Source: an uncultured Dehalococcoidaceae bacterium
GTDB lineage: Bacteria > Chloroflexota > Dehalococcoidia > Dehalococcoidales > RBG-16-60-22
Direction of reading: 5' to 3'
Assembly: GCA_964456395.1 (NCBI GenBank)
Contig: CAYWAU010000001.1
Coordinates: forward strand, 1-62,482
Length of the DNA: 62,482 nucleotides
Shown here: in pieces, positions 8,372 to 61,294 of the stretch
How the letters are laid out: every line of letters begins with the position of its first letter
Position numbering within the stretch: the stretch's first letter is position 1
Notes under the pieces: generated by a model
Databases searched by the model: none
The model's input: only the letters and a program-made list of their open reading frames with translations
Told to the model about the DNA's origin: nothing
Made by a program: the position numbers and the translations under genes

Positions 8372-9322
8372 TTAGCCAGCCCGTTTTTCTACCCTGTTGA
8401 CCAAGAAAGTAAGCCACCGACTGGGCTCTTCCTGCTGACCGAAGTCAAGCCCCGCATAAGCTCCATCGGTGGACTCGGCAACATATTTCCCGCCCGATGC
8501 CTTCCGATGCACAGAATCCAGCATACTCTGAAAGCTCCTGCTATCTACGGCATAAGGAAACAGGGATAGAACATCCAGAACTCGCAGGATACCGTATTTG
8601 ACGGCGGGATACTGCAGGCTCTTGAACCGCCTGCCGACACCAAATCCGTCCAAATGTGACCCTTCTTCCCAGTGCTCCAGCAACAAGTCAATAGCACTAT
8701 TGAGCATGGAGTCTTCTCTGTATTTATTATACTGACCAAACAGCATCAGTATATTCAGATTATCCATCGGACATGATTCAATGTCCAGCATACCATAATC
8801 GCTGTTATAACAGTGCCATCCGCCACCACGTACCTGGGAGTTCAGGATAACCCGGATGTACTTCTGTATTCGCGGGTCATCTTTATAACCCATCCGTGCC
8901 AGGGAAGAGATAAGTATTGCCGACATGCAGAAGTAGTTGTCTTTGACATTCGGCGGTATGATAAAAGTACCGTCCGGTTGCTGCCGGCGGAATATTTCCT
9001 CCACTTCCCTGTCCAATCCTATATCATTTACAGTAAGCCCGATGTCGGCCAGAAAAAAGAGGTCCCAGTAGGCTTTCCCCGTTTCAGTATAATGTACCTT
9101 CCCGGTTTTTAACGCCGGTATGCCCACCTGAGTATCTTTAAGCCTGTTTACTATCTCTGTAATAGCGCTATCCCTCAGTACCGGCTTGACATCCGGTTTT
9201 GAATCCAGAAGCTGGAGTTCCACTGCATATTTCAGCCATACAGGACCTTCAAGCAACCAGTCAGTAACTTCTCTATTTAAAATATCTCTCCTTAATTTAT
9301 GTAGACTCTTTAAGCAATACAT
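8372..9322 (-). CDS. hypothetical protein, possibly alpha/alpha-toroid (prenyltransferase/terpene-cyclase-like repeat) fold
   Basis: 316-aa ORF with protein-like composition. QQPDGTF and RGGGWHCYN segments resemble prenyltransferase/squalene-oxidase repeats. No catalytic motif recognised. Confidence 0.4.
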   Translation of the reverse strand: MYCLKSLHKLRRDILNREVTDWLLEGPVWLKYAVELQLLDSKPDVKPVLRDSAITEIVNRLKDTQVGIPALKTGKVHYTETGKAYWDLFFLADIGLTVNDIGLDREVEEIFRRQQPDGTFIIPPNVKDNYFCMSAILISSLARMGYKDDPRIQKYIRVILNSQVRGGGWHCYNSDYGMLDIESCPMDNLNILMLFGQYNKYREDSMLNSAIDLLLEHWEEGSHLDGFGVGRRFKSLQYPAVKYGILRVLDVLSLFPYAVDSRSFQSMLDSVHRKASGGKYVAESTDGAYAGLDFGQQEEPSRWLTFLVNRVEKRAG

Positions 9323-9501: not shown

Positions 9502-10785
9502 TTACGCAAACAGCTCCATAATATGCATTGCCTTCTGAGGCATACCGTGCCGAATCAGGCCATCCATCAGTTGTATCTGGCACCCCGGGCAGTCGGTCAC
9601 GACGATATCCGCACCGGTTGATTTTATGTCGGCAATTTTCCTGTCAGCTATTTGCTTGGAAAGGTCGTAGAAATAGATGCTGAAGGTTCCGGCCATACCG
9701 CAGCACCGGTCGGCATTGGGCATTTCTATATACTCTATACCAGCTAATGATTTCAATATCTGCCTTGGCTGTTCTTCGACGCCCAGGTAGCGACCCAGGT
9801 GGCACGGCTCATGCCAGGTAACACGATTGCCCTTAAATTCGCTGGCAACCCGGTAAGCGGAAGGAGGCAGCTGTAGAATGTCCACCAGAAACTCGGTTAT
9901 ATCCTTTATCTTAACGGCAAAATCGGTGTACTCACGCTTTCTTTCATCGGTGTCAGCCAGAAACTTGCTGTAGTCTTTCATCGCCGAGGCGCAGGTAGCA
10001 CAGTCGGTGAAGATATAATCCAGGTCTTTGAATGCCCGAACATTGCTATCAGCCAGCCTGCGGCCGGTATCAAAATCACCGGCGCCGAGAAATACCGGTG
10101 CCCCACAGCATCCCTGTCCTCTCGGCACTACCACCTCTACCCCGTTTCTGGTAAGAAAGCTGATTATCTTTTTACCAAGCTCGGGAAAGACAAAATCGGT
10201 CATGCAGCCGGTGAAGTAGCCAGCAGTATATCTGGTCTTCGTGCCGTGAGGAGGACGATTTACCTCGGGAACCGACTGGCGCAGGAACTTCGGCGCAATT
10301 TGTGGAATATGCCTTCCCTTACCGAGAGCCGAAAGAAAGAAAGAAAGATGGCGGATGGTCCCCTCCGTTCTGGGCATAAAGATTCCCTGAAACCACGAGG
10401 CAAATCGCACCACATAGCCGAATAGTCGGCGTCTCGGCAGCAGCCAGCGGAAAATTAAATTATAGGGGAAGGACAGACCCTTCTGCTTTACCCTATCGGC
10501 CCTGGCGGCGGTAATAACCGAAGGTACGTTAGTATTTGACGGACAATTCTGGGCACAGGTCATGCACAATGTGCACTTGTTAAGCTTACTTGCCAGTTCG
10601 TCAGTAGGAGCCAGCTCACCGGATAATAAGGCCCTGATGAGCATGATTTTGCCGCGCGCTACCGATGACTCAACCCGCTCTTCCTGGTAAACCGGACAGT
10701 AAGACATGCAGAATCCGCATTTGGTACACCTATCCAGGTCACTTTTAAACCTGTTTATCTGTTCAAACCCGTTACTACTCTCCAT
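9502..10785 (-). CDS. Fe-S oxidoreductase, GlcF / heterodisulfide-reductase-D-like (2x 4Fe-4S plus CCG domains)
   Basis: CTKCGFCMSYCP and CTLCMTCAQNCP ferredoxin motifs, plus two Cys-rich CCG-type motifs (CCGAP, CCGMAG). The likely start at 10785 overlaps the upstream gene by 11 nt. Confidence 0.8.
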   Translation of the reverse strand: MESSNGFEQINRFKSDLDRCTKCGFCMSYCPVYQEERVESSVARGKIMLIRALLSGELAPTDELASKLNKCTLCMTCAQNCPSNTNVPSVITAARADRVKQKGLSFPYNLIFRWLLPRRRLFGYVVRFASWFQGIFMPRTEGTIRHLSFFLSALGKGRHIPQIAPKFLRQSVPEVNRPPHGTKTRYTAGYFTGCMTDFVFPELGKKIISFLTRNGVEVVVPRGQGCCGAPVFLGAGDFDTGRRLADSNVRAFKDLDYIFTDCATCASAMKDYSKFLADTDERKREYTDFAVKIKDITEFLVDILQLPPSAYRVASEFKGNRVTWHEPCHLGRYLGVEEQPRQILKSLAGIEYIEMPNADRCCGMAGTFSIYFYDLSKQIADRKIADIKSTGADIVVTDCPGCQIQLMDGLIRHGMPQKAMHIMELFA

Positions 10786-12172
10786 CAGGTGCTTCTTCCC
10801 AGATTTTACCGGGATTGATGATGTGCTTGGGGTCCAGCACACCCTTTATCTTCTTCATAACATTGATGGCCACCGGGTCCATAGCCTTTTTCAAAAAACG
10901 CTGTTTCTCCAGACCGATGCCATGCTCACCCGAAATCACGCCGCCCAGGGACAGAGCCGCCTCAATAATCTCATCCACACATCTCAGGGCACGATTAAAA
11001 TGCTCCTGGTCCCGGATGTCCGTAAGCACCCCGGGGTGGAAATTGCCGTCTCCAGCGTGACCGGCTAAACTGACGGATACATCGCAGCGCCGGGCGCTAT
11101 CCTGACACTTCCTTACGAACTCGGCTATCTTATCACGAGGCACGGTTACATCCTCACTGAGGACGGTATATGCGGCACTGTTAATATCGGAAAAATGGTC
11201 ACTCCTGGCCTGCCAGACCTTCTCAGCCTCCGCCTGGTCCTGAGCCACCCAGACTTCTCCCGCCCCACCTCTCCTGCAGATATCAACAATCTGCTCAGCC
11301 TCCGCCTCTACTGTTTCCGTAAGACCATCAACCTGTATTAGAAGAAGGAACTGGGTATCAGCAGGCAGACTCGAAGACAATATTTCCTCAAACCTTTTTA
11401 TCGTCCAGTTATCAATTAACTCTATCTTGGCTGGCAACACGCCGTGGGCGATGATACTGGATACGGCTTCGCCAGCTACGGCAACATCGTTAAAAACGGC
11501 GACCATGGTTTTGCTGTCCTTGGGCGCCGGCAGCAGCCGCAGTATTGTCCTGGTTATGATACCCAGAGTGCCCTCGGACCCGGTAAACAGCATCATCAGC
11601 TCATAACCCGTTCTGTTTTTGGGGGTAAGGCCGCCCACGTTCATTATGCTACCATCAGCCAGCACCACCTCCAGACCAAGTACATACTGTTTGGTGACTC
11701 CGTATTTCAGGCAGGAGGGACCCCCGGAATTTTCCGCCACCACGCCGCCCATAGTGCAGCCAAAGGAGCTCTGCGGGTCCGGAGGGAAAAACAGACCCTC
11801 TTCCGCAAGGGCAACATTAAAGTCCTGAAGAATAACACCGGGTTCTACAGCGGCATGCAGGTTAGCCCTGTTTATCTCTATAATCCGGCTCATCCTGGTG
11901 GTGCACAGGACGATGCCGCCCTTTATCGGTATGGAACCGCCGCTCACGTTGGTGCCACCGCCTCTGGGAGTGACCGGTATTTCATTATCGTTAGCTAATT
12001 TTAAAATCCCGGATACCTGCCCCGCGCTTGCCGGCAGCACCACTACGTCAGGCATATGCGACCATAGAGTGGTAGCATCATATGAGTAGGCGATTAGCTC
12101 CTCTTTAGAGGTCAGCACGCTGTCTTTACCCACAATCCGGCGCATCTGGTCAATATGCTTTGATTTAATCAT
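10775..12172 (-). CDS. FAD-linked oxidase, GlcD / D-lactate dehydrogenase-like
   Basis: 465 aa. FAD-binding PCMH-type N-terminal region (PRGGGTNVSGGSIP), C-terminal GGVISGEHGIGLEK, and INPGKI tail. Confidence 0.85.
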   Translation of the reverse strand: MIKSKHIDQMRRIVGKDSVLTSKEELIAYSYDATTLWSHMPDVVVLPASAGQVSGILKLANDNEIPVTPRGGGTNVSGGSIPIKGGIVLCTTRMSRIIEINRANLHAAVEPGVILQDFNVALAEEGLFFPPDPQSSFGCTMGGVVAENSGGPSCLKYGVTKQYVLGLEVVLADGSIMNVGGLTPKNRTGYELMMLFTGSEGTLGIITRTILRLLPAPKDSKTMVAVFNDVAVAGEAVSSIIAHGVLPAKIELIDNWTIKRFEEILSSSLPADTQFLLLIQVDGLTETVEAEAEQIVDICRRGGAGEVWVAQDQAEAEKVWQARSDHFSDINSAAYTVLSEDVTVPRDKIAEFVRKCQDSARRCDVSVSLAGHAGDGNFHPGVLTDIRDQEHFNRALRCVDEIIEAALSLGGVISGEHGIGLEKQRFLKKAMDPVAINVMKKIKGVLDPKHIINPGKIWEEAPDGE

Positions 12173-12340: not shown

Positions 12341-12369
12341 TTGACAACAGGATTGCCAGTTTATAATAA
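12341..12369 (+). promoter_or_regulatory. candidate sigma70-type promoter for the Zn-ADH gene
   Basis: TTGACA at 12341, followed by TATAAT/TAATAA at about 12362-12369. Located ~50 nt upstream of the 12420 start. Confidence 0.35.
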
Positions 12370-12419
12370 TGACACCGTGTCCACCTGTAGCCAAGAATAA
12401 TTAATCACGAAGGTAAAAT

Positions 12420-13451
12420 ATGAAAGCATTGAGATGGTATGGCAGAAAAGACCTCCGCTATGAGGATGTGCCTGAACCTTCACCCGGTTCAGGGCAGTTA
12501 AAAATAAGGGTTAACCTGGCAGGCATCTGCGGTTCAGATTTGAAGGCATACGCCGACAAACTCAGTATGATTACCGCCGACAAAGTGCCGCTGACCATAG
12601 GGCATGAGTTTTCCGGGAGAGTGGCGGTGGTCGGTGAAGGGGTAGCTGACTTTAAAGTCGGAGACCGGGTCAGCGGAGTAGGCTACTGGTTCTGCGGCGA
12701 ATGTTTTTATTGTAAAAGAGGTTTATACAATCTTTGCTTGAAATCGGACTTTATGGGCATCAGCAAGGATGGCTGTATGGCTGAATATCTGATTGCCCCG
12801 AGTTATGCTTGCTACAAGCTCCCCGACTCGGTGTCTGACGAAGCCGGGGCTCTGGTAGAGCCTCTGGCAGTAGCCATTCACGCTCTTCGCCAGGGCAAGG
12901 TAAGCCCCGGGGATACAGTGGCTATTGTGGGCGATGGTGCCATTGGCCTTGGCACTCTGCTGGCAGCCAGGGTGTCCGGGGCATCTGAAATTTTTATGGT
13001 AGCCAAGCATAAGGGGAGAGGAAAAATCGCCTCGGCTATGGGAGCTACCGCGGTTATTTATCTCAGCGACGGAGACCCAGTCCAGCTGCTCCAGAATCTG
13101 ACCGGCGGCTTGGGCGCGGACGTAACTATTGAATGTGTCGGCCAGCCGGATACCCCCCGGTTAGCCGTGGAACTGGCGCGAAGAGGGGGCACCGCCGTAA
13201 TCGTGGGTGTCTTTGAAAAACCAAGCACCTTTGACTTCAGCAGCATGACGTTCAGCGAGAGAACCGCTGTGGGCAGCTCTATTTATGTGGACGAGGGCAG
13301 GACGGCTATCGCTCTTCTAGCTGACGGCAGAATTGACCCCGCCTCTTTAATTACGTCAAAAGTACCGCTTAAAGACGCGGTAAAAATGGGGTTTGAGGAA
13401 CTGATTAACAATAAGGAGAAAAATATTAAAATCCTGCTTCAAATTCCCTGA
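12420..13451 (+). CDS. zinc-dependent alcohol/polyol dehydrogenase (MDR family, butanediol/sorbitol-DH-like)
   Basis: GICGSDL and GHEFSG catalytic Zn ligands. Structural Zn loop CGECFYCKRGLYNLC. Rossmann segment VAIVGDGAIG. Confidence 0.85.
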   Translation: MKALRWYGRKDLRYEDVPEPSPGSGQLKIRVNLAGICGSDLKAYADKLSMITADKVPLTIGHEFSGRVAVVGEGVADFKVGDRVSGVGYWFCGECFYCKRGLYNLCLKSDFMGISKDGCMAEYLIAPSYACYKLPDSVSDEAGALVEPLAVAIHALRQGKVSPGDTVAIVGDGAIGLGTLLAARVSGASEIFMVAKHKGRGKIASAMGATAVIYLSDGDPVQLLQNLTGGLGADVTIECVGQPDTPRLAVELARRGGTAVIVGVFEKPSTFDFSSMTFSERTAVGSSIYVDEGRTAIALLADGRIDPASLITSKVPLKDAVKMGFEELINNKEKNIKILLQIP

Positions 13452-13655: not shown

Positions 13656-14867
13656 ATGATAAATAAAGAGATGTTTGAGTTTCCCATAACCTATACCAAT
13701 GTTATCCCCAGGATAGCCCTGGGATGGGGAGCCCATGAGACGGTTGCCGATGAATGCAAAGCCGCCAAAATTAAAAAGGCGTTGATTGTGACCTCAGGTT
13801 TGAAAGGAACCGGCATCGTCGACGAAATCAAAGGAATTCTGGAGCACAATGGCGTGCCGACAGAAATCTACGACAAGATCACTTCCAACCCTAAAGACTA
13901 TCAGGTGATGGAAGCTTATAAGGTCTTGAAGGACGGTGAATGCGACGGGGTGGTTTCGGTTGGCGGCGGCAGTTCCCACGATTGCGGCAAAGGCGTTCGT
14001 GTGGTGGCGGCCAACGGCGGAAAGGACATCCTGAACTTCTCCGCGTTTATAGACCCGCCCTGGATGGAAGAGGTTAAAAAATATAATCCGTGTACTATAC
14101 CGCAAATCACGGTTAATACCACATCCGGCACAGGGGCAGAGGTTTCGTCCATGGCAACCATTACGAGTGTGAAGGGCAGGGCAAAGCTATTGATTATTGC
14201 GCCAAATATTGTTGCCGACGTAGCCATTATCGACCCGCTATTAATACGGTTACAGCCTAAAAATATTGCTGCCTGGACAGGCTTCGATGCCATGACACAT
14301 GGATTCGAGGCATTTGTAACCAAGGTACAGGGCCCCTACGCCTATGGAATGCTGCTACGGGCGATTCAGCTCATTACAGAAAATCTCAGAGACTTTACTT
14401 ACAACCGGATGAACAATATCGCCTGTGAAAGAATGTGCTGGGCGGCGACAATGGGTGGCATCGCCATCGGCTTCGGCGCCGGTGCCGGCATTGTTCACGG
14501 ATTAGGACATCAACTCGGGGCATTAACTGACTGCCACCATGGTCTGGCCAATGGTGTTCTCACAATTGCGGGAGAGAGATATAATCAACCTGCCTGTGTT
14601 GAGAAACTCGCCGTCATGACCAAAGCGATGGGAGTTGATACCAGCAATATGACTGAATCGCAGGCCGCCGAAAGGTGGTTTGATGAAATGGAAAACCTGC
14701 TGAAGGACTTGGAAATCACCCCCGGCCAGTTGAACAAGCAGTTCGGGCTTCAGGAAAAGGACTTGGAACATATTGTCAAAATATACTCCAATGACTTCTG
14801 CAGCCAGGGAAATCCGCGAGAATTCAACGCCGAGGAAGCTCTCAACGTACTAAAGAGTATACTCTAA
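13656..14867 (+). CDS. iron-containing (type III) alcohol dehydrogenase, Mno/Mdo (nicotinoprotein methanol dehydrogenase)-like
   Basis: 403 aa. SNPKDYQVMEA, GGGSSHDCGKG, TTSGTGAE, HGLGHQLG, HHGLANG, and a GNPRE tail. The overall pattern resembles actinobacterial NDMA-dependent methanol dehydrogenases. Confidence 0.8.
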   Translation: MINKEMFEFPITYTNVIPRIALGWGAHETVADECKAAKIKKALIVTSGLKGTGIVDEIKGILEHNGVPTEIYDKITSNPKDYQVMEAYKVLKDGECDGVVSVGGGSSHDCGKGVRVVAANGGKDILNFSAFIDPPWMEEVKKYNPCTIPQITVNTTSGTGAEVSSMATITSVKGRAKLLIIAPNIVADVAIIDPLLIRLQPKNIAAWTGFDAMTHGFEAFVTKVQGPYAYGMLLRAIQLITENLRDFTYNRMNNIACERMCWAATMGGIAIGFGAGAGIVHGLGHQLGALTDCHHGLANGVLTIAGERYNQPACVEKLAVMTKAMGVDTSNMTESQAAERWFDEMENLLKDLEITPGQLNKQFGLQEKDLEHIVKIYSNDFCSQGNPREFNAEEALNVLKSIL

Positions 14868-15098
14868 AGGCTTGAGGAAGCTGAAAAGCTAAACAGAGAT
14901 AAGGGCAGACCCACCTGTAATGTGAGTGGCGATAACTTCTGCGTTACACTCCTACGAGGCTTACCTACCCGTGATATGAATCACAGTGCACACAAAGTCG
15001 GCTGTCACGGCAATAGAGACAGAGCTTAACGGAGGCAACGCCGGGGTCTGGCTTCAATTTGCTTTATAATAGCTCCACTGCTAGAATGCACAGGGGGT

Positions 15099-15206
15099 GG
15101 GGAAAGCCGGTTCCCTTCATGAAACGCGATACGGGAAAACCTATGCCAAGAATCATAGCAGAAGGAGGCGTATCCAGATAAATTAAAAGGGGAAAGGCCA
15201 GTTCCC
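15099..15206 (+). repeat. two copies of a GGGGAAAG-N-TTCCC hairpin motif 90 nt apart in the ADH1-ADH2 spacer
   Basis: ggggaaagccggttccc at 15099-15115 and ggggaaaggccagttccc at 15189-15206. Each can fold as a GGGAA/TTCCC stem. Confidence 0.35.
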
Positions 15207-15266
15207 GATTAAGCAGCTATGTGGACAATAAAAATCACAATATGTAGATGAAAAGGAGGAAAGCCA

Positions 15267-16487
15267 TTGATAAACGAAAATATACATCAATTTCCTATCA
15301 TTTACGCAGGTAACTGGGGCCTGGGCAGGATTGCCACCGGATGGGGTGCCCATAAGACCGTCGCCGACGAATGCAAGCAGCTCGGTATGAAGAAGGCGCT
15401 TATTGTGACCACCGGCCTGAAAGGAACCGGTATCGTCGATGAAATCAACCAGATTATATCAACCCAGGGTGTGGCGACAGAAATCTTTAGCGGGGTAACC
15501 TCCAACCCCAAAGACCATGAAGTTATGGCAGGCTATAAGGTCTTCAAGGAAGCTCAGTGCGACGGTGTGGTTTCGGTCGGCGGTGGCAGCTCACACGATT
15601 GCGGTAAAGCAATTCGCGCTGTTGCTTCCAACGACGGAACAGATGTTTCAAACTTCCAGCTGGGGATAGACCTGCCCTGGACGGAACAGATGAAAAAATA
15701 TAAAGCATGTACCATACCGCAGGTTTCGGTAAATACCACGTCCGGTACTGGTGCCGAGAACACGGGTGGTGCCGCTATCAACCAGTCCAATATCAGGGCC
15801 AAGCGAATAGCTATAGTACCGGGGACCGCACCCAGTATAGCAATTAATGACCCCCTGCTAATCCGGTGCCAGCCGGCACACATCGCCGCCCAGACCGGAT
15901 TTGACGGTTTCTGCCATGCCTTCGAGTCATATATAGCTCGCGTGCAACCGAAGCACAGTACCGTCCTAGCCGCCGGCGCCATCAAACTGATAGCCGAAAA
16001 TCTCAGGGAGTTTGCTTTCAACCGGATGAACCATGTAGCCTGTGAAAATGTCATCTGGGCATCGTCAATGTCGGGAGCCATAGGCCTCAGTCTTGGCGGA
16101 GGTGTCGGCGTGATACACGGTTTTGGACATGGACTCTCGGCACTGTATGGCGTTCACCATGGCCTTGCCAGCGCCGTCGTTACCATCCCGGGAGAGAGAT
16201 ATAATCAATCCGAGTGCCCTGATAAATTCGCCGAAATGGCCCAGGCTATGGGTGTTGATACCAGAAATATGACCAAGATGCAGGCCTCCGATGCGTGGTT
16301 CACCGAAGTTGAAAGACTGCTTGACGATTTGAATATCCAGACCGGGAACCTGAAGCGGTTCGGTCTCAAGAAAGAGGATATCCCGCATATTGTCAGGGTA
16401 CAGCATTCGCTCGATTTGACCGTAGTGGGCAACCCCAAGGACTACAATTATGACGAGTTAGTTGCCCTGTTTGAGACTCAGCTCTAA
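15267..16487 (+). CDS. iron-containing (type III) alcohol dehydrogenase, Mno/Mdo-like paralog
   Basis: 406 aa with TTG start after AAAGGAGGAAAGCC, the same RBS context as ADH1. Same motif set: SNPKDHEVMAG, GGGSSHDCGKA, TTSGTGAE, HGFGHGLS, HHGLASA, GNPKD. Confidence 0.8.
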   Translation: MINENIHQFPIIYAGNWGLGRIATGWGAHKTVADECKQLGMKKALIVTTGLKGTGIVDEINQIISTQGVATEIFSGVTSNPKDHEVMAGYKVFKEAQCDGVVSVGGGSSHDCGKAIRAVASNDGTDVSNFQLGIDLPWTEQMKKYKACTIPQVSVNTTSGTGAENTGGAAINQSNIRAKRIAIVPGTAPSIAINDPLLIRCQPAHIAAQTGFDGFCHAFESYIARVQPKHSTVLAAGAIKLIAENLREFAFNRMNHVACENVIWASSMSGAIGLSLGGGVGVIHGFGHGLSALYGVHHGLASAVVTIPGERYNQSECPDKFAEMAQAMGVDTRNMTKMQASDAWFTEVERLLDDLNIQTGNLKRFGLKKEDIPHIVRVQHSLDLTVVGNPKDYNYDELVALFETQL

Positions 16488-16633
16488 AGACCCCAAGAAC
16501 GGCGGTTGGGAAAATGCAGTGAGATAACTGCATTGATAGCCAGCGGGTGGCAGGGAGTCCCCTGGTAATTGTACAATAATAATAGGACTTGGTACCTACA
16601 GGATAAATCATAGCGGACGGAAGGCAGGTTAAG

Positions 16634-16765
16634 ATGGGAAAAGAACAGAAATCAGCGGTAGCAACGGCGAAAAATGAGGTCAAAACCACCCAGGAAGAAC
16701 CCGAGGTTTTAGAGGAAATCGTCGTTGAAGAGCTGAGCATAGACGGCGTTTGCGGGGTATACTAA
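16634..16765 (+). CDS. mftA: mycofactocin-type precursor peptide MftA (43 aa, absent from the ORF track)
   Basis: ATG at 16634, TAA at 16763-16765. Translates to MGKEQKSAVATAKNEVKTTQEEPEVLEEIVVEELSIDGVCGVY. The C-terminal IDGxCGVY signature sits directly upstream of MftB/MftC-like genes. Confidence 0.85.
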   Translation: MGKEQKSAVATAKNEVKTTQEEPEVLEEIVVEELSIDGVCGVY

Positions 16766-18081: not shown

Positions 18082-20037
18082 ATGTACGGGCAATTTAAAT
18101 ATCTATTCTCACCACTACAGATAGGCAAGACAATAGTGCCGAATCGCATTTCTTTTTCCTCTCATCTAACCAACTTCGCCGAGGATAATTTACCAAGCGA
18201 GCGGCATACCTACTACCTGGCCGAGCGTGCCAGGGGTGGCGCCGGTCTGATAATAACCGAGGAACAGTCCGTGCACCCTACCGACCACTCATACGAAAAA
18301 CTCATCGATGCCTTCAAACCGGAGGTTATTCCCGGCTACCGCAGGATATGTAAGGCCGTTCATGAGTACGAAACGAAGATTTTCGCCCAGTTAAACCACA
18401 ATGGCGCTCAGGGTGACGGGACTATTTCCAGATTGCCCCTATGGGCACCTTCCCCGGTACCTGACGTGATGTTCCGGGAAGTGCCCAAGGAGATGGAACT
18501 GGAAGACATCAGGGAAGTTATTGAATCTTTCGGCAAGTCGGCAGCTCACGTCCGGGAAGGAGGCTTTGACGGTATTGAGTTGCAGATTAGCCACAGCTCC
18601 CTGCTGAGGCAGTTCCTGTCCCCTCTATCAAACCTTCGCACCGATGATTACGGCGGCAGCCTGGAGAACCGGATGAGGTTGGCTCTGGAGGTAATCGCAG
18701 CCGTTCGGGCAACGGTTGGGCTTGACTTCACTCTGGGGATGCGCCTTTGTGCCGATGAGATGATTCCCGGCGGCCTGACCCTTGACGATACCAGGGAGAT
18801 GGCACGCCGCTTTGAAGCCACCGGAAAAATTGATTTTATTGACCTGAGTATAGGAACTTTCTATAATCTTTATCTTGTCGGCGGCACGATGCACACTCCC
18901 CTGGGATATACCATTCCGCTGTCCGCCGGCATCAAAGAGGTGGTCAATCTGCCTGTCTTTGCCACCGGCCGGATTAATGACCCCGTAATGGCGGAGAGAA
19001 TCCTGGCTGAAGGTCAGGCTGACATGATTGGTATGGTACGCGCCCAGATTTGCGACCCCGAGATGGCCAATAAAGCCAGGGATGGCAGACTTGAGGAGAT
19101 AAGATACTGTGTTGCCGACAACCAGGGCTGTTACGGACGGATAGCCATGAACAAGGATATCGGCTGTATGCAAAATCCGTCCATCGGACATGAAAAGGAG
19201 ATGGGCATCGGCTCCATTAAACCGGCATCGGTTAAGAAAAGAGTATTGATTGTCGGCGGCGGGCCAGCCGGCCTGCGGGCGGCTGAGGTAGCGGCTAAAC
19301 GCGGGCATAACGTAACACTTTATGAAAAGAATGAGAAGCTGGGAGGTCAGGTTAATATTGCCGCACTTGGAACCGGACGGGAAGAAATCAGTGCTATTAT
19401 TCGTAATGAGGAGAACCAGCTTAAGATACTGCCGGTGGAAATCATCCTTAACAAAGAGGTCTCACCCGAATTCGTCCTGGCACAGAAGCCTGACACGGTT
19501 ATTATTGCCACCGGCTCGGTGCCCAAGGAAAGCCCGGTGCCGGGTGCCGACGGCACCAACATTTTCAACGTCTGGCAGGTACTTTCCGGTGAGGCAGAGC
19601 TGGGGAAACGGGTTCTCTTTATTGATTATGACGGGCATCACCAGGCCACAGCCACAGCCGAATACCTTGCCGATAAGGGTAAAGAAGTCCACATGCTCAC
19701 CTCCTCTTTATTCGTCGGGCAAGACCTGGGGCCGGTGCAGGACCTGTATCTCACCCGGCAGCGCCTCCTGCAAAAGGGCGTTACCTCTACGCCGGACTTC
19801 GCCGTCATGGAGATAAAGGGACTGGAGGTAAACGGCTTCAACGTTTATTCCAACGAGTGGCATACCTTCAGCGGCTATGACTCCATAGTGCTCGCCATGG
19901 GCAACCGTGTGGAAGACGCTCTTTATAAAGCCCTGAAAGGTAGAGTGAAAGAGCTTTACCGGATTGGCGATTGTGTGGCACCTCGCAAGATAGATATGGC
20001 GATACTGGAAGGCGATAAAGTGGGCAGGATGATTTAA
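18082..20037 (+). CDS. OYE-like FMN / Fe-S / FAD-NAD(P) oxidoreductase (2,4-dienoyl-CoA reductase / enoate reductase family)
   Basis: 651 aa. OYE TIM-barrel N-terminal half. Fe-S motif region CVADNQGC-x11-C. Rossmann segment VLIVGGGPAGLRAAEVAAKRGHNVTLYEK. Confidence 0.8.
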   Translation: MYGQFKYLFSPLQIGKTIVPNRISFSSHLTNFAEDNLPSERHTYYLAERARGGAGLIITEEQSVHPTDHSYEKLIDAFKPEVIPGYRRICKAVHEYETKIFAQLNHNGAQGDGTISRLPLWAPSPVPDVMFREVPKEMELEDIREVIESFGKSAAHVREGGFDGIELQISHSSLLRQFLSPLSNLRTDDYGGSLENRMRLALEVIAAVRATVGLDFTLGMRLCADEMIPGGLTLDDTREMARRFEATGKIDFIDLSIGTFYNLYLVGGTMHTPLGYTIPLSAGIKEVVNLPVFATGRINDPVMAERILAEGQADMIGMVRAQICDPEMANKARDGRLEEIRYCVADNQGCYGRIAMNKDIGCMQNPSIGHEKEMGIGSIKPASVKKRVLIVGGGPAGLRAAEVAAKRGHNVTLYEKNEKLGGQVNIAALGTGREEISAIIRNEENQLKILPVEIILNKEVSPEFVLAQKPDTVIIATGSVPKESPVPGADGTNIFNVWQVLSGEAELGKRVLFIDYDGHHQATATAEYLADKGKEVHMLTSSLFVGQDLGPVQDLYLTRQRLLQKGVTSTPDFAVMEIKGLEVNGFNVYSNEWHTFSGYDSIVLAMGNRVEDALYKALKGRVKELYRIGDCVAPRKIDMAILEGDKVGRMI

Positions 20038-20053: not shown

Positions 20054-21070
20054 ATGGCCAAACCAAGAGAAATCTGGGTGCTGCCGGAGATAAACAACAA
20101 CGAAGAGGAAATCGGCAAGCTGAGCCTGGGACTCCTCTCCGAAGCCAGCTATATTGCGGGAAAGGCTGGCGGCACCGTAACCGCCCTGGTGCTTGGCGGC
20201 CAGAGCCAGGACTATTCTGAAGTCCTCGGTCAATATGGAGTCGCCAAGGCGTATATATTTATAGACCCTGTTCTTGAATACTTCTCCGCGGAGGCTTACT
20301 CGGCGGCTCTGCTGCCCAGAATTCAGGAAGATAAACCCTGGCTTCTGCTTATGGGCAACACCACCATCGGCAGGGAGCTGGCTCCCCGGCTGGCGGCGTT
20401 TTTCGAGACAGGCATAATCTCAAACTGCGCTAAAATGGACATATCCCATCCGGAGAGTCCGATATTCTTTCGCCTGATTTACGGAGACCAGCTCTACCAG
20501 GAGGTAATCTTTCAGACCAGCCAGACAATGCTGGTAACCATGGACCCGAGAGTTTTAAACATAAACCCTGTTGCAAAAAGGAGCAAAGCAAAAACTCTGG
20601 TGATTGAGCCAAGACTGTCTCCGGAGGTAATAAGGGCAGAGCATCTGGAATTCCTGCCGGCCGATTTCAAAACCGTGGATGTTGCCGAAGCTGATACTAT
20701 TGTCTCCGCTGGTATGGGAGCCGCCACTGACGAACTGCTGCCTCTGGTTGAGGAACTGGCCGGTCTGATTGAAGGCACTATCGGCACCACCCGGCTGGTT
20801 GTTGACGGCGGGCAAATATCCCGGGAGCGGATGATTGGACAAACCGGTAAGGTGGTCAGCCCGGAGCTCTACCTGGCTCTGGGAATATCGGGGGCGACCC
20901 ACCACGTCGGCGGCATTCAGGACTCGGGAAAAATCATCTCAGTTAACCGCGACCCGCAGGCTCCAATCTTCAGGAATTCCGATGTAGGCATAGCGGCTGA
21001 TATTAAGGACGTATTGCCCAAACTAATCGAAAAAATCAAGCAGGCTAAAAGCAATGGCACAATACTTTGA
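20054..21070 (+). CDS. fixB: electron transfer flavoprotein alpha subunit (FixB/EtfA)
   Basis: 338 aa. C-terminal FAD-binding motif LYLALGISGATHHVGGIQDSGKIISVNRDPQAPIF. Confidence 0.85.
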   Translation: MAKPREIWVLPEINNNEEEIGKLSLGLLSEASYIAGKAGGTVTALVLGGQSQDYSEVLGQYGVAKAYIFIDPVLEYFSAEAYSAALLPRIQEDKPWLLLMGNTTIGRELAPRLAAFFETGIISNCAKMDISHPESPIFFRLIYGDQLYQEVIFQTSQTMLVTMDPRVLNINPVAKRSKAKTLVIEPRLSPEVIRAEHLEFLPADFKTVDVAEADTIVSAGMGAATDELLPLVEELAGLIEGTIGTTRLVVDGGQISRERMIGQTGKVVSPELYLALGISGATHHVGGIQDSGKIISVNRDPQAPIFRNSDVGIAADIKDVLPKLIEKIKQAKSNGTIL

Positions 21071-22352
21071 TGTTATCATAGTCGGAGCCGGACCAGCCGG
21101 CAGCATGGCAGCCCTTAAACTGGCTCGAGCCGGACTGAAGGTTGTTATGCTGGAACGGGGCCAACGCCCCGGCTCCAAGAACATGTTCGGCGGGCTGCTT
21201 CACAATACGCCGGCTCTGAATGAAATGCTGCCTGCTTTCTGGGAAAGGGCACCCCTGGAACGGCACGTGTTTCAAAAAGTTCTTGCCTTCATGACCCCGA
21301 CTTCTTCCGTTTCCATGACCTTTGAAACCGAAAAATTTGAACAGCCTCCCTACAACGGCTACACCGTATTCCGTCCCGTTTTTGACAACTGGCTGGCTGG
21401 CGAAGCCGTCAAAGAAGGGGCTTTATTACTCTGCGATTGTACGGCCGAGGATTTGATTCAAAAAGACAGACAGGTGGTCGGCGTCACCGTTAAAGGCAGG
21501 GACGGCGAACTGAGAAGCAGCATAGTCATCGCGGCTGACGGAGTCCTGTCTTTTATGGCTGAAAAAGCCGGCCTGAGGCAAGATTTCCGCGCCGCCGACA
21601 TGGGCCTGGGCATCAAGCTCCTCCTGGGCCTGCCCGAGGCAACCATAGACGAGCGGTTCCACCTGGCCCGGGATGAAGGGGCTGACATCAGCTTTGTAGG
21701 CACGACAAATGGACTGCGCGGCGGCAGCTTCCTCTATACCAACCGTGAAAGTATCTCCATCGGCATGGTAGTGCATCTCGACTCGCTGAGGGCATCGGGT
21801 AAAGCCCCCTATCAGGTTCTGGATGAATTACTGCTGCACCCCCATGTCAGAAAGCTGCTCAAGGGCGCCGAGCCGCTGGAATACTCGGCACACCTTATCC
21901 CGGAAGGCGGCATCAAGGCAATACCAAAGCTTTATACCGGCGGGATGCTGGTCGTCGGCGACGCCGCCGGTCTGTGTTATACCAACGGCATCAATCTGGA
22001 AGGAATCAACCTGGCCATGACTTCCGGAGCGCTGGCTGCCGAGACGGCTCTGCAGGCAATAGAAGCCGGAGACTACAGTGCCCGGATGCTGTCATTATAT
22101 AAAAAGAAGCTGGACGGCAGCTTCATCATGAAAGATATGAAAACGTTTAAAAACGCCGTCGGCATGATGCATATGGAGCGACTGTTTCAGGCTTATCCGG
22201 AAATTGCCGGCAATATACTGGAAAAGATATACAGAGTTGAAGGCGTCCCCAGGCCAAAACTCCTGCGCCTGGCACGAAAAGAAGCGCTGAAAAAAGTGAA
22301 ACTGACAGACCTGGTTTCAGACGGCATTAAAATAGGCAAGTCATTATTATGA
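21054..22352 (+). CDS. fixC: FAD-dependent ETF:quinone-type oxidoreductase FixC
   Basis: 432 aa. FDVIIVGAGPAGSMAALKLA dinucleotide fold and GDAAG motif. Sits between fixB and fixX. Confidence 0.8.
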   Translation: MAQYFDVIIVGAGPAGSMAALKLARAGLKVVMLERGQRPGSKNMFGGLLHNTPALNEMLPAFWERAPLERHVFQKVLAFMTPTSSVSMTFETEKFEQPPYNGYTVFRPVFDNWLAGEAVKEGALLLCDCTAEDLIQKDRQVVGVTVKGRDGELRSSIVIAADGVLSFMAEKAGLRQDFRAADMGLGIKLLLGLPEATIDERFHLARDEGADISFVGTTNGLRGGSFLYTNRESISIGMVVHLDSLRASGKAPYQVLDELLLHPHVRKLLKGAEPLEYSAHLIPEGGIKAIPKLYTGGMLVVGDAAGLCYTNGINLEGINLAMTSGALAAETALQAIEAGDYSARMLSLYKKKLDGSFIMKDMKTFKNAVGMMHMERLFQAYPEIAGNILEKIYRVEGVPRPKLLRLARKEALKKVKLTDLVSDGIKIGKSLL

Positions 22353-22624
22353 ATGTTGATAATTTACCGCAACTAACACAATTCCAGGTTGACGAACAGC
22401 CCCATATTGTCTTGAATAAGGAAATCTGTCAGTCCTGTGACCACCGTGCCTGTGTCCAGTCGTGTCCGGCTAACTGCTATACCTTCGATGAAGCCACCAG
22501 AATGATGAGCGTCGTCTATGAGACATGTCTGGAGTGCGGCACCTGTTACGTAATTTGTGACCAAGGAGCCATTGATTGGAGCTACCCCAGGGGTGGCTAC
22601 GGAGTATGCTTTCGCCTGACCTAG
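22349..22624 (+). CDS. fixX: ferredoxin-like protein FixX
   Basis: 91 aa. CQSCDHRACVQSCP and CLECGTCYVIC motifs. ATGA overlap with fixC. Confidence 0.8.
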   Translation: MNVDNLPQLTQFQVDEQPHIVLNKEICQSCDHRACVQSCPANCYTFDEATRMMSVVYETCLECGTCYVICDQGAIDWSYPRGGYGVCFRLT

Positions 22625-22655
22625 AACTGAAGCCCGGCATGACGTGGTAATAGCC

Positions 22656-23558
22656 ATGAAGATTATTGTCTGCTTGAAAGAGGTGGTTGATACTAATCTG
22701 AGCCTTGGTTTCGGCTTGAGCAACCGGGTGGTCTTCCAGGAAGGACTGCCGCTCAGGCTGAATCCGGATGACACCGAGGCACTGGCAAAGGCACTCAACC
22801 TCAAACAGTCAGATGATGAAGCCCAGGTTGAAATCACCCTCATCTCTATCGGCCCGGAAAGGGTGGAGGGCTACTTAAGAGACGGACTGGCTCTTGGAGC
22901 CAACAGAGCGGTGCGCATACGGCAGGACAGCCTCATGGAGCTATCTTCTCATCAAAAAGCCAGGCTACTGTCCAGAGCCGTTTCTCTATTTGGTGCCGAC
23001 CTCGTTTTAACCGGAGCCGGGAGTCTGGATACCGGCAATGGTCAGGTAGGCCCGCTGATGGCGGCCTGGCTTGACCTGCCCTGTATCGGCGAAGTGGTCG
23101 GATTTAAGCTAGCCGATGAAAAAAAGAGCATCACGCTAACCAGAGACATCGGCAGAGGCGCCCGGGAAAAGATACGGTGCTCTCTGCCGGCGGTCATAAC
23201 CGTGAAAGGAGAAGGAAAACTACACTATGCTTCTCTGGATAGGCTTGTGGAGAGTAAATATGGTGAGATAATTCGGCTTACTCTGGCTGACCTTGGTACA
23301 TCTGACGTTGAGTTGAAAAATGACCCCACCAGGATTACTGGTCTGGCTTACCCGAGGCCCAGGCCCAGGAAAACACCGGCGCCAGAAAGCTCGTTACCGG
23401 CGTTTTACAGAATCCTGAAGCTACTGGAGGGAGGCATCTCCCGGCGACAGGGGGAAATGCTCCAGGGCAGCAGCCAGGAGCTGGCTGACCAGCTCTTTGA
23501 GCTACTTATAGAAGAGGGCGTGATTGAGTCAGCCACAGAAAAGGGCTCCGGTAAATGA
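22656..23558 (+). CDS. fixA: electron transfer flavoprotein beta subunit (FixA/EtfB) with ~40-aa C-terminal extension
   Basis: MKIIVCLKEVVD is a typical EtfB N-terminus, and the ORF ends in a Pro/Arg-rich linker plus tail. GTG at 22644 is an alternative start. Confidence 0.8.
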   Translation: MKIIVCLKEVVDTNLSLGFGLSNRVVFQEGLPLRLNPDDTEALAKALNLKQSDDEAQVEITLISIGPERVEGYLRDGLALGANRAVRIRQDSLMELSSHQKARLLSRAVSLFGADLVLTGAGSLDTGNGQVGPLMAAWLDLPCIGEVVGFKLADEKKSITLTRDIGRGAREKIRCSLPAVITVKGEGKLHYASLDRLVESKYGEIIRLTLADLGTSDVELKNDPTRITGLAYPRPRPRKTPAPESSLPAFYRILKLLEGGISRRQGEMLQGSSQELADQLFELLIEEGVIESATEKGSGK

Positions 23559-23602: not shown

Positions 23603-25051
23603 ATGGCAGGATTTGGCTTTTCATTAGCGGACAACACCTATTTAAGAGAAGACCCCGACGGTAATTTTCTGCTCTCCAATCTGCCCCTGAGAATACTCCG
23701 AATAAACAAACCTCTCTTCCGACTCCTCAAGCACCTCCAGGGGGGTGGCGAATTGCCCGAATTTGTCAGTCAGAACCCGGGGCTGGAGGAGGGGCCTTTG
23801 CTGAGGGTCCTGCTGTCTCTGGCATCCAGGGGATACCTGAAATTAGAGAGAATAGCCAAAATAGAAGACTACCCCATCGTCTCCATTGTCATTCCAGTCC
23901 GAGACCAGCCTGAAGATATCATTGAGTGCCTCCAATCGCTGAGAAATCTGGATTATCCGGGAGACCGGTTTGAAGTTATTGTGTTAGATGACGGTTCCCA
24001 GGCTGAAGTCTCTCAGGGTGTTACTACTCCCGATGTTATGGTCATCAGGCAAGACGAGTCACGGGGCGCCTCTGTCTGCCGAAACATCGGGGCTGAAAAG
24101 GCTCGCGGCAAAATCCTGGCCTTTCTGGACGCCGACTGTATTGCCCCTGAGAACTGGCTAAAGGAAACCATTCCCTTTTTCAAAACGGCGACGGTCGGGG
24201 CGGTAGGCGGTTATGTGGACGGCTATTACAAAGACAGCTATCTGGACCGGTACGAAGAGGTCTCTTCATCGCTGAACATGGGGAAGCGGCTCCTCCTGGA
24301 AGGCAATACGGAATCAAACTTTTATGTGCCTACGGCCAATATGCTGATTAACAGGGACGCCTTTATGGCTACCGGTGGTTTCAGGAGCGGTATGCACCTG
24401 GGTGAGGACGTGGATTATTGCTGGCGAATGAGAAACCTCGGCTACACCCTGCTCTACGTTCCTTTTGGCAGGGTTGCCCATAAGCACCGCAACCGCCTCG
24501 GTAAAATGCTGAAAAGACGGAGCGAATACGGGACATCGGAAGCCAGGCTCTACCTCATTCACCGGGATAAAAGGAAGACCTTTCTCATTTCTGTCTGTGC
24601 CGGATTATCTTTCCTGGCCCTGACCCTCTCTGTTTTGCTTTTAAATCCTTATCCCCTCTGCCTTATCCTGTTATTATTCGGGATTGACCTGCTCCGGAAA
24701 TCCGGCACGCTGAGGAAGTTCAAAATGCTGCTTCCTTTCCGACAAATAGCCTGCGCCACCCTGAGAAGCTATTTTTCCTCCTATTATTTCGCTCTGTTTC
24801 ACCTGGTAAGATATTACCTGTTCTTAATATTTGGGCTCGGCTTCTGGCTTCACTCCGTGTGGCTTTTTGGCGGCCTGGCGGTGCTCTTCACATCAATCGT
24901 AGATTATTCCGTAAAAAAGCCGAATCTGCCTTATCCGGCCTTCCTTTTCTTTTATGTCCTGGAACATCTGGCATACCAGATAGGGGTTCTCCGGGGGTGC
25001 CTAAAATTAAAATATTTCAGGTCGTATATCCTTTCCTTCAGGCGTGCCTGA
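23603..25051 (+). CDS. mftF: family 2 glycosyltransferase with membrane-spanning C-terminal region, MftF-like
   Basis: 482 aa. N-terminal PqqD-like segment (LLSNLPLRILRINKPLFRLL). GT-A core (VSIVIPVRDQ, VLDDGS, FLDADC). Hydrophobic C-terminal ~140 aa. Same transcription unit as mftABC. Confidence 0.7.
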   Translation: MAGFGFSLADNTYLREDPDGNFLLSNLPLRILRINKPLFRLLKHLQGGGELPEFVSQNPGLEEGPLLRVLLSLASRGYLKLERIAKIEDYPIVSIVIPVRDQPEDIIECLQSLRNLDYPGDRFEVIVLDDGSQAEVSQGVTTPDVMVIRQDESRGASVCRNIGAEKARGKILAFLDADCIAPENWLKETIPFFKTATVGAVGGYVDGYYKDSYLDRYEEVSSSLNMGKRLLLEGNTESNFYVPTANMLINRDAFMATGGFRSGMHLGEDVDYCWRMRNLGYTLLYVPFGRVAHKHRNRLGKMLKRRSEYGTSEARLYLIHRDKRKTFLISVCAGLSFLALTLSVLLLNPYPLCLILLLFGIDLLRKSGTLRKFKMLLPFRQIACATLRSYFSSYYFALFHLVRYYLFLIFGLGFWLHSVWLFGGLAVLFTSIVDYSVKKPNLPYPAFLFFYVLEHLAYQIGVLRGCLKLKYFRSYILSFRRA

Positions 25052-25089: not shown

Positions 25090-26280
25090 ATGAAGATAAA
25101 TATTAAAGGTGATTATTATCGGGCGGCCGTCAGGTTGCTGGGCAACGCTCTCAGGTTCCGCTATTCAAAATTTACGGGAGCCCCTTTAAAGCCGGCGGTA
25201 GTCAGTCTGGCAGTGACAAATCGCTGTAACTCCCATTGTATCATGTGCAATATCTGGCAGAGAGCCAGGGAGCTACCCGGTATCAAGAGTCTGGAGATGC
25301 CCCAGAAAGAGATTCTGGACTTATTATCACGTCCCCTGTTTTCAGAGCTGGTTGAGCTGGACTTAACCGGCGGCGAGCCTCACCTGAGAGATGACCTGGT
25401 TGACATCGCGCTCAGCATAGCCAGTCTCAAAAAAAGCTCTCTGCCAAGACTGAGGAGCATCATCATTACCTCTAACGGCTTATTACCCCGACAGGTAATC
25501 TCAAACCATCAGAGAATTCTGGAAGGTTTAAAAGGCACAAATATAGACCTGGTCAGTGTTGCCTCAATGGATGGGATTGGGGAAACTCACGACTTTATCA
25601 GGGGAACCAGGGGTGCTTTTGAACTGGCTACCAAAACAATCAGCGGGCTTCTGGAACTCAGGAAGAAATACCCCGATTATTTCATCGGCATAAAAACCAC
25701 AATCCTGCCCCAGAACGTCAATAGTCTTGATGCTATTCTGGATTATGCTCTGGAAAAGAATATTTTTCATATCATTTCACCGGTCTTCTTCACCGAAGCG
25801 AGGTTCAGAAATACGGACAAAATAGATGAATTAACGCTGGGACCTGATGAATATAAAGAGGTCCTGAAATTTTTCAGTCGTGATGAATTAAAGACGAGCT
25901 ACTTCTACCCTTTGGCACGAAGCTTCCTGGCTACCGGGCGAAAGCAATGGGCGTGTACCGCCTTTCACAACTATCTGTTCATCGATTTTGACGGAACGGT
26001 ATATCCCTGCGAACTGATATCCGAGCCAATCGGTAACGTCAGAGAGCAGGACGTGGCGGACATCTGGAACGGTGCCGAGGCTCGTCACTGGCGGAAAAGA
26101 ATCGGGAAACTGGAATGTTGCCGTACCTGCAATGAGCCCGGCGCGATACGGTACAGCGCCTGCACCGAGGGATTCAGCTACCTTAAGTTTTTGGTGAAGC
26201 TCGGCAGGCAAAAATTCCGTAAGACCCTTTACGGAGAGGGTTTTTACAAATATTTTGGTGATTTACAGGCAAAGAAATGA
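25090..26280 (+). CDS. second radical SAM / SPASM-domain protein of unknown substrate
   Basis: 396 aa. CNSHCIMC (CxxxCxxC), LTGGEPHL, and C-terminal Cys-rich region (CTAF...YPCE...CCRTCNEPG...C). Starts 38 nt after mftF. Confidence 0.75.
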   Translation: MKINIKGDYYRAAVRLLGNALRFRYSKFTGAPLKPAVVSLAVTNRCNSHCIMCNIWQRARELPGIKSLEMPQKEILDLLSRPLFSELVELDLTGGEPHLRDDLVDIALSIASLKKSSLPRLRSIIITSNGLLPRQVISNHQRILEGLKGTNIDLVSVASMDGIGETHDFIRGTRGAFELATKTISGLLELRKKYPDYFIGIKTTILPQNVNSLDAILDYALEKNIFHIISPVFFTEARFRNTDKIDELTLGPDEYKEVLKFFSRDELKTSYFYPLARSFLATGRKQWACTAFHNYLFIDFDGTVYPCELISEPIGNVREQDVADIWNGAEARHWRKRIGKLECCRTCNEPGAIRYSACTEGFSYLKFLVKLGRQKFRKTLYGEGFYKYFGDLQAKK

Positions 26281-27962: not shown

Positions 27963-27997
27963 GTCGCTTCTCCTTCCCAGGCGTCAACAGTAGACGG

Positions 27998-29245: not shown

Positions 29246-29281
29246 ACCAAACCTCCTGTATCTGATTTCGGGTCGCCATCC

Positions 29282-61221: not shown

Positions 61222-61294
61222 TGGAGCCGGGGGGATTCGAACCCCCTACCTCCTGCGTGCAAAGCAGGCGTTCTCCCAACTGAACTACGGCCCC
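61222..61294 (-). tRNA. tRNA-Ala (anticodon UGC)
   Basis: The reverse complement folds as a cloverleaf. Acceptor stem GGGGCCG/CGGCUCC has a G3:U70 pair. Anticodon loop is UUUGCAC and the T-loop is GGGGGUUCGAAUCCCCC. Discriminator is A and CCA is not encoded. Confidence 0.95.

Follow-up and report, generated by a model that had tools for sequence, protein, structure and literature searches.

The sequence analysed here, referred to below as the window, is the whole 62,482-bp contig CAYWAU010000001.1 (assembly GCA_964456395.1), from a metagenome-assembled genome (MAG) of an uncultured Dehalococcoidaceae bacterium. Between 12.4 and 25 kb it carries a cluster of genes, all on the forward strand, that opens with one zinc-dependent and two iron-dependent alcohol dehydrogenases and continues through a 43-codon open reading frame (ORF), mftA, to genes for an MftB-like protein, the radical S-adenosylmethionine (SAM)/SPASM maturase MftC, a block of flavoproteins with a ferredoxin, and the glycosyltransferase MftF (Table 1). 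Judged from its sequence and that of its relatives, mftA is very probably a genuine, translated gene that, in an anaerobic member of the Dehalococcoidales, encodes the peptide from which a redox cofactor of the mycofactocin type is made.

The mftA gene and its product

Read and translated directly, mftA runs on the forward strand from an ATG at 16634 to a TAA at 16763–16765 and encodes the 43-residue peptide MGKEQKSAVATAKNEVKTTQEEPEVLEEIVVEELSIDGVCGVY. Position, start, stop, length and translation agree with those given in an earlier note on this DNA, as does the presence of GGAAGG shortly upstream, a Shine–Dalgarno-like box lying 9 nucleotides (nt) 5′ of the ATG. The peptide ends in SIDGVCGVY, with the Tyr directly before the stop codon, and fits the pattern IDGxCGVY; it is the single such peptide gene within the window. 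That it is an MftA-type precursor had been proposed in the same note, and the hidden Markov model (HMM) test set beforehand bears this out, the peptide clearing all three available MftA models: TIGR03969 (39.9 bits versus a curated cut-off of 25, E-value 2.6e-10), NF040489 for the variant-type mycofactocin precursor (36.9 bits versus 30) and Pfam PF23709 (33 bits versus 27). The models match solely the 23-residue C-terminal part (EEPEVLEEIVVEELSIDGVCGVY), residues 21–43, which correspond to profile positions 1–23 of 23.

The description of the ORF as unannotated holds for the ORF track of the window but not for public collections, in which the identical peptide is already a called gene product with a precomputed match to the MftA Pfam family. 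Relatives from Dehalococcoidales and Chloroflexota carry the names 'mycofactocin precursor' or 'variant-type mycofactocin precursor' at the Joint Genome Institute (JGI) and NCBI, with NCBI applying the latter label (NF040489 class) to the Dehalococcoidales. The MftA family is thus known and curated, and the contig adds one more member to it.

Table 1 Features of the mycofactocin-type cluster, in order along the window
Feature	Position	Strand	Basis
Zn-dependent alcohol dehydrogenase, opening the co-directional block; candidate client of the cofactor	12420..13451	+	Sub-threshold family matches only
Fe-dependent alcohol dehydrogenase 1 (Fe-ADH1), candidate cofactor client	13656..14867	+	TIGR04266, below cut-off
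Fe-dependent alcohol dehydrogenase 2 (Fe-ADH2), paralogue of Fe-ADH1	15267..16487	+	55% identity to Fe-ADH1
Shine–Dalgarno-like GGAAGG	16619..16624	+	Direct reading; similar box in most related loci
mftA, 43-residue mycofactocin precursor peptide, including stop	16634..16765	+	ORF, three HMMs, conservation
Conserved 23-residue C-terminal part EEPEVLEEIVVEELSIDGVCGVY	16694..16762	+	HMM match, codon-position pattern
Val42-Tyr43 codons GTA TAC, predicted core dipeptide for MftC	16757..16762	+	Letters read; chemistry inferred
Divergent MftB-like peptide chaperone (PqqD/RRE type), 88 residues	16768..17034	+	TIGR03967, below cut-off; hhalign
mftC, radical SAM/SPASM maturase, 341 residues	17021..18046	+	TIGR03962, Cys motifs
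Mycofactocin-system FadH/OYE oxidoreductase 2 (OYE2), FMN domain and FAD/NAD domain	18082..20037	+	TIGR03997
ETF large subunit, EtfA/FixB-like	20054..21070	+	Pfam ETF and ETF_alpha
FixC-like flavoprotein of ETF-quinone-oxidoreductase type	21054..22352	+	PRK10015, NF007542, 7koe_C
FixX-like ferredoxin	22349..22624	+	NF011993, 4Fe-4S dicluster Pfam
ETF small subunit, EtfB/FixA-like	22644..23558	+	Pfam ETF, 7koe_A
mftF, mycofactocin glycosyltransferase	23603..25051	+	TIGR03965
Second radical SAM/SPASM protein, 396 residues, CX3CX2C present	25090-26280	+	Reaches no curated family cut-off
RRE, RiPP recognition element (RiPP, peptide made on the ribosome and modified after translation); OYE, old yellow enzyme; FMN, flavin mononucleotide; FAD, flavin adenine dinucleotide; NAD, nicotinamide adenine dinucleotide; ETF, electron-transfer flavoprotein.

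Conservation of mftA across related loci

A scan of a single genome for each species, with the neighbouring MftC as query, recovered 25 loci in MAGs of Dehalococcoidales, Dehalococcoidia or Chloroflexota (67–82% MftC identity) and one in Candidatus Formimonas warabiya (50%). A small ORF ending in IDG[VI]CGVY and a stop codon is found at the equivalent place in 24 of the 24 MAG loci that reach upstream of MftB, and also in Formimonas, and within these 25 other loci IDGxCGVY is invariant save for the alternation of Val and Ile at x. With a score above the curated cut-off at so low an E-value, and with the ORF recurring in 24 Dehalococcoidales loci and Formimonas, the match to MftA is far beyond chance. 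Across taxa the leader is variable, with the C-terminal 23 residues nearly invariant. In the last 23 codons of 25 Dehalococcoidales-type sequences, variable columns number 9 at first, 3 at second and 23 (of 23) at third codon positions, and pairwise codon differences comprise 2712 synonymous versus 761 non-synonymous changes. This codon-position pattern is a coding signature and reflects purifying selection on mftA at the protein level; an argument from protein-level conservation was used for MftA by Haft in 2011 (PMC3023750).

The ATG of mftA is shared among the related loci, it is preceded in most of them by a purine-rich box (GGAAGG, AGAAGG or AAGGAGG) at similar spacing, and the start of MftB follows 2–6 nt past the mftA stop in most. 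The wider gene order, alcohol dehydrogenase, MftA, MftB, MftC, OYE2, EtfA, FixC, FixX, EtfB and MftF, holds across all Dehalococcoidales loci of sufficient length to display it. These comparisons establish the ORF, its family membership, the purifying selection and the synteny, and every sequence-level and context-level feature that defines MftA and could be tested is present here.

MftB-like protein and MftC

As the earlier note had it, the gene downstream of mftA begins 2 nt past its stop codon, with an ATG at 16768, and encodes 88 amino acids. Gene callers in related contigs use an upstream alternative start (a TTG at 16750 here), giving a 94-residue form that overlaps mftA; the conserved ATG or GTG 2–6 nt past the mftA stop favours the 88-residue form. 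The description of this protein as PqqD-like stands and can be made more exact, since it appears to be a divergent MftB. Homology to bona fide MftB is well supported by sequence comparisons: TIGR03967 was matched by 20 of 20 clade homologues tested (best E-value 1.3e-8), and hhalign aligned the clade profile with the MftB of Formimonas, which itself exceeds the TIGR03967 cut-off at 77.8 bits, over 76 columns with a probability of 96.9% and an E-value of 1.5e-10. Near its N-terminus, VRKESWGLLFY is the counterpart of 'RPExFGAL', the signature that Haft names for the MftB family (PMC3023750), and the top match of a profile search of the PDB was PqqD (3g2b, E-value 0.045). No Pfam match was obtained for this protein, and most of its public relatives are labelled 'hypothetical protein'.

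The radical SAM/SPASM gene overlaps that of the MftB-like protein by 14 nt, in agreement with the first reading. Its product scores above the MftC cut-off (TIGR03962, 347.8 bits versus 265) and contains both a CX3CX2C motif (C22/C26/C29) and a SPASM motif C-x2-C-x5-C-x3-C (C296/C299/C305/C309), the latter also cited for Rv0693 (PMC3023750). Its best solved relatives are SkfB and PqqE.

The flavoprotein block, MftF and the alcohol dehydrogenases

The block OYE2-EtfA-FixC-FixX-EtfB between mftC and mftF is conserved across the related Dehalococcoidales loci, and the position of OYE2 is constant in every related locus that reaches it. OYE2 matches TIGR03997 over its full length (962.4 bits versus a cut-off of 793.15), and its best solved relatives are 2-naphthoyl-CoA reductase (NCR; 6qkg, 323 bits) and 2,4-dienoyl-CoA reductase (DCR; 1ps9, 298 bits), where CoA is coenzyme A; trimethylamine and histamine dehydrogenases are more distant (219 and 210 bits). 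At the position aligned to the Cys that forms 6-S-cysteinyl-FMN in trimethylamine dehydrogenase, OYE2 has a Leu. An amine oxidase resembling trimethylamine or histamine dehydrogenase was considered as the identity of OYE2 and, with NCR and DCR scoring higher, was retained only as a low-probability part of the more far-reaching reading considered below.

Other members of the block resemble components of electron-bifurcating and FixABCX systems. The closest solved relatives of EtfA are the ETFs of electron-bifurcating complexes (5ol2, 6fah, 7qh2 and 4kpu), and that of EtfB is in the Thermotoga FixABCX complex (7koe_A), from which the closest solved relative of FixC is also drawn (7koe_C, E-value 2.6e-81). 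The FixC-like protein scores 350 bits with PRK10015 and 333 bits with the FixC model NF007542, both below cut-off, and the FixX-like protein matches 4Fe-4S dicluster Pfam families and, again below cut-off, NF011993 (E-value 4e-15). MftF, which closes the conserved order, passes TIGR03965 (335.2 bits versus 280). Because the block is invariant in these variant clusters, and because the re-oxidation of the cofactor is stated as an open question for the ~25% of MftC genomes that lack MftG (PMC11778925), OYE2-ETF-FixCX may reasonably be regarded as the electron-transfer partner of the cofactor in these anaerobes.

Upstream of mftA, a Zn-dependent alcohol dehydrogenase is conserved in most related loci and an Fe-dependent one in every locus extending that far, immediately so in most. 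Fe-ADH2 is an extra copy, most related loci having a single Fe-dependent enzyme and one (L012) having three. The best matches of the Fe-dependent enzymes are N,N-dimethyl-4-nitrosoaniline (NDMA)-dependent methanol dehydrogenase and lactaldehyde reductase, below the respective cut-offs, with Fe-ADH1 scoring 264.7 bits versus 625 for the NDMA-dependent methanol dehydrogenase model TIGR04266. Enzymes of the same Pfam family (PF00465) lie beside the radical SAM gene in Geobacter and Desulfotomaculum (Haft 2011, PMC3023750). The upstream Zn- and Fe-dependent alcohol dehydrogenases are likely to be enzymes that depend on the cofactor.

Fe-ADH1 and Fe-ADH2 are separated by a 399-nt non-coding spacer (14868–15266), and Rfam searches at gathering thresholds returned no RNA element in this spacer or in the mftA leader. 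A promoter-like site at 12341–12370, before the Zn-dependent alcohol dehydrogenase, agrees at 11 of 12 positions, within a promoter and terminator scan of 12–27 kb whose counts equal the shuffled expectation and are, as a whole, not above chance.

The suggestion that mftA explains the 12–26 kb region is upheld by the alcohol dehydrogenases, mftABC, the OYE/ETF/FixCX block and mftF, in an arrangement that is not the canonical mftABCDEF and includes neither MftD nor MftE.

Proposed pathway

All of the chemistry is inferred, as are the nature of the final product and the part played by the flavoprotein block; the individual steps follow by homology to the mycobacterial pathway, from which the decarboxylation and cross-linking of Val-Tyr by MftC are taken (PMC7491314, PMC11778925). 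The MftB-like RRE protein would bind the acidic leader (residues ~20–35, EEPEVLEEIVVEEL) and present the peptide to MftC, which would oxidatively decarboxylate Tyr43 and link it to Val42, giving the lactam 3-amino-5-[(p-hydroxyphenyl)methyl]-4,4-dimethyl-2-pyrrolidinone (AHDP) at the end of the peptide. The core would then be freed by a peptidase encoded outside the cluster, its amine oxidised by some enzyme that is not a clustered MftD, yielding the redox-active alpha-keto-amide, and the product glycosylated by MftF. Electrons would probably pass between the cofactor and the remaining metabolism through the OYE2-EtfAB-FixCX block.

Missing maturation genes and points against the assignment

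Several observations weigh against this account of the locus. The first concerns the MftB-like protein, which reaches only 22.5 bits with TIGR03967 versus a cut-off of 33, the match covering residues 3–37 only. Its AlphaFold2 model, built with 43 sequences, is of low confidence (predicted local distance difference test, pLDDT, 60.7); it has four strands followed by three helices, and its top Foldseek matches are nearly all RREs (TbiB1, PqqD, lasso B1, the CteB RRE and the PbtF RRE) at non-significant E-values of 0.1–1 (0.1–0.5 for the first three), so that at this pLDDT these matches are only suggestive. The second concerns the ETF subunits, which are ETF proteins by Pfam and fall outside the mycofactocin-associated ETF equivalogs, EtfA scoring 157.4 bits versus 240 with NF038209 (mft_etfA) and EtfB 80.7 bits versus 200 with TIGR04503 (mft_etfB).

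The third is the absence of maturation genes. A scan of contig ORFs of at least 120 residues found no FMN_dh/MftD (TIGR03966/PF01070) and no creatininase/MftE (TIGR03964/PF02633) anywhere in the 62-kb contig, nor a glucose-methanol-choline (GMC) oxidoreductase (MftG) or a TetR regulator (MftR). None of MftD, MftE, MftG and MftR was found in the 26 related loci, Formimonas included, in stretches of at most ~21 kb per locus reaching up to ~10 kb on each side of MftC; all loci were covered by tblastn mapping, ten by a look at the ORFs between and around the mapped genes, and three more by Pfam labels. Clusters without MftD and MftE were noted by Haft in 2011 (PMC3023750), and the application of the NCBI variant-type model to Dehalococcoidales MAGs implies that curators are aware of the architecture; the puzzle it poses is biochemical, because in mycobacteria it is MftD that forms the redox-active keto-amide. 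The lack of mftE is plausible in that other peptidases partly compensate for the loss of MftE in Mycobacterium smegmatis (PMC7491314). Deletion of mftD in the same organism abolishes all mycofactocins, with accumulation of AHDP-n (PMC7491314). Unless another part of the genome encodes MftD, or something takes its place, the final product of this cluster may therefore not be the canonical mycofactocin.

The second radical SAM/SPASM gene, after mftF, was considered as a stand-in for MftD or MftE and rejected. Its product is 25% identical to MftC and matches no curated family, the gene follows mftF in ~8 of the 13 loci reaching that far, and a 63%-identical homologue is found on a 2.3-Mb contig far from any mft genes, beside a PF04060 Fe-S protein (L036). 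This protein probably does not belong to the mft system.

Alternative readings

One alternative is that MftC does modify the peptide but that, without MftD and MftE, the mature product is something other than canonical mycofactocin, such as an AHDP-type amine that has been glycosylated, a cofactor still attached to peptide or a keto-amide formed by a non-orthologous flavoenzyme of the cluster; the product would then be a 'variant' cofactor, chemically distinct from mycofactocin. Such a reading leaves the identity of the gene as proposed above and departs on the end product only, and we regard it as possible but less likely than not. The mftD phenotype of M. smegmatis (PMC7491314) speaks for it together with the missing MftD and MftE. 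The peptide also passes the separate variant-type model of NCBI, the Formimonas peptide is recognised better by that model (42.8 versus 34.8), and three flavoenzymes (OYE2, FixC and ETF) are invariably embedded in the cluster. On the other side, IDGVCGVY is the canonical core and the contig peptide scores higher with TIGR03969 than with the variant model, MftF is retained above its cut-off, and other parts of the genome could encode MftD and MftE; OYE2, moreover, lacks a Cys aligned with the 6-S-cysteinyl-FMN site of trimethylamine dehydrogenase and is nearer to dienoyl- and naphthoyl-CoA reductases than to amine dehydrogenases.

A more far-reaching version of the mycofactocin assignment, which we consider unlikely as a whole, holds that strict anaerobes (Dehalococcoidales and Ca. 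Formimonas) make a mycofactocin-type cofactor without MftD and MftE and that OYE2-EtfAB-FixCX is its dedicated electron chain, an O2-independent substitute for MftG. The block would then couple mycofactocin(ol) with NAD(H), with ferredoxin or with an enoyl substrate, possibly via flavin-based electron bifurcation, and one of its flavoenzymes might perform in an O2-independent manner the oxidative deamination done by mycobacterial MftD; that a block flavoenzyme also replaces MftD is speculation.

It is very improbable that the peptide is instead the precursor of a secreted, bacteriocin-like RiPP, with the radical SAM enzyme making a bioactive peptide. The nearest solved relatives of MftC do include the bacteriocin maturase SkfB, and the pairing of an RRE with a radical SAM/SPASM enzyme is also typical of sactipeptides and ranthipeptides, families to which weak matches were obtained; however, genes for a transporter, for immunity or for a leader peptidase are missing from the cluster, oxidoreductases and electron-transfer proteins surround it and lie between its genes, and the combination of a near-invariant C-terminal 23 residues with a variable leader follows the 'grammar' of cofactor precursors (PMC3023750).

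Finally, the idea that mftA is a chance open frame, or that the true gene is the 115-residue antisense ORF (16393–16740), which does exist and overlaps mftA as the earlier note had pointed out, gains something from the shortness of mftA but is refuted by the HMM scores above curated cut-offs, the variable columns concentrated at third codon positions, the conserved start codon and Shine–Dalgarno-like box, and the lack of a conserved antisense counterpart, tblastn giving only short, weak matches opposite the coding part of mftA in three loci and the antisense frames being broken by stops in many.

Comparison with known systems

Like the actinobacterial mftABCDEF clusters of M. tuberculosis and M. 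smegmatis, the contig encodes a short ribosomal peptide whose leader varies and which has an acidic stretch and ends in IDGxCGVY, with genes for MftB and a radical SAM/SPASM MftC directly after it and one for MftF in the cluster. It differs from them in its host, an anaerobic member of the Dehalococcoidales (Chloroflexota) known from a MAG, in the lack of mftD, mftE, mftR and mftG from the 62 kb, in the insertion of OYE2-EtfA-FixC-FixX-EtfB between mftC and mftF, in its divergent, sub-cut-off MftB, and in Fe- and Zn-dependent alcohol dehydrogenases that fall below the nicotinoprotein cut-offs of TIGR03989 and TIGR04266.

A parallel in gene content is Ca. Formimonas warabiya DCMF, which shares the Zn-dependent alcohol dehydrogenase, MftA, OYE2, EtfA, FixC, FixX, EtfB, MftB, MftC and MftF and likewise has no MftD or MftE within ~10 kb either side of MftC. 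Its gene order is different, 8 kb separating mftA from mftB and mftC downstream of it, OYE2 is duplicated, its MftC is just 50% identical, and its MftB passes the family cut-off, whereas that of the Dehalococcoidales does not. Other non-actinobacterial carriers of the system include Pelotomaculum, Desulfotomaculum acetoxidans and Geobacter uraniireducens (Haft 2011, PMC3023750), and within the searchable literature no experimental study of a variant-type or anaerobe mycofactocin was found, nor anything beyond Haft 2011. The cluster belongs to a little-studied anaerobe type that lacks MftD and MftE and contains ETF, FixCX and OYE proteins.

Pyrroloquinoline quinone (PQQ) is likewise a redox cofactor made from a small peptide, with the help of a PqqD-type RRE chaperone and an enzyme of the radical SAM/SPASM kind, and the best solved relatives of MftC and the MftB-like protein include PqqE and PqqD. 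The cross-link joins Glu and Tyr in PQQ versus, as predicted, Val and Tyr here, the contig has no homologues of PqqB, PqqC or PqqF, and the PqqE HMM stays far below its cut-off in the window (119 bits versus 381).

Surroundings of the cluster

The cluster is flanked on both sides by reverse-strand genes (9502–12172 and 26295–30439) for a dihydroxy-acid dehydratase, a galactarate-dehydratase-like protein, GlcD/GlcF-like (LdhH-like) Fe-S flavoenzymes and, below family cut-offs, a homologue of the LarA nickel-pincer racemase. A LarA-like gene also adjoins the mft cluster in five related loci (L003, L005, L007, L009 and L015). A 316-residue ORF further upstream (8372–9322, reverse strand) had no Pfam or NCBIfam match at the thresholds used.

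From 30936 to 61160 the window is a dense island of organic-acid and acyl-CoA metabolism. It encodes six family-III CoA-transferases (at 32588, 33860, 49066, 50443, 55235 and 56462), two MmgE/PrpD proteins, two acyl-CoA dehydrogenases, a thiolase-like protein and an enoyl-CoA hydratase, as well as a tripartite ATP-independent periplasmic (TRAP) transporter (two DctP genes, DctQ and DctM) and the glutamate mutase components MutE and MutL. The sole Rfam match in the window is a tRNA at 61222–61294 on the reverse strand (70.3 bits).

Meaning for the biology of the lineage

For annotation, recognition of mftA turns what would read as a generic run of oxidoreductases between 12.4 and 25 kb into a recognisable cofactor system, and an uncultured lineage of Dehalococcoidales is seen to carry a peptide-derived redox cofactor system beside alcohol dehydrogenases. 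This gain is an ordinary one, the family being curated and relatives of the same order already labelled; the interest lies in the type of cluster, without MftD and MftE and with OYE2-ETF-FixCX. Mycofactocin biochemistry has been worked out in aerobic actinobacteria only, where MftD cannot be dispensed with (PMC7491314) and respiration receives electrons by way of MftG. The clusters of Dehalococcoidales and Formimonas present, in OYE2-ETF-FixCX, a compact and conserved candidate answer to how the cofactor is re-oxidised without MftG, and they are a natural test of keto-amide formation without MftD.

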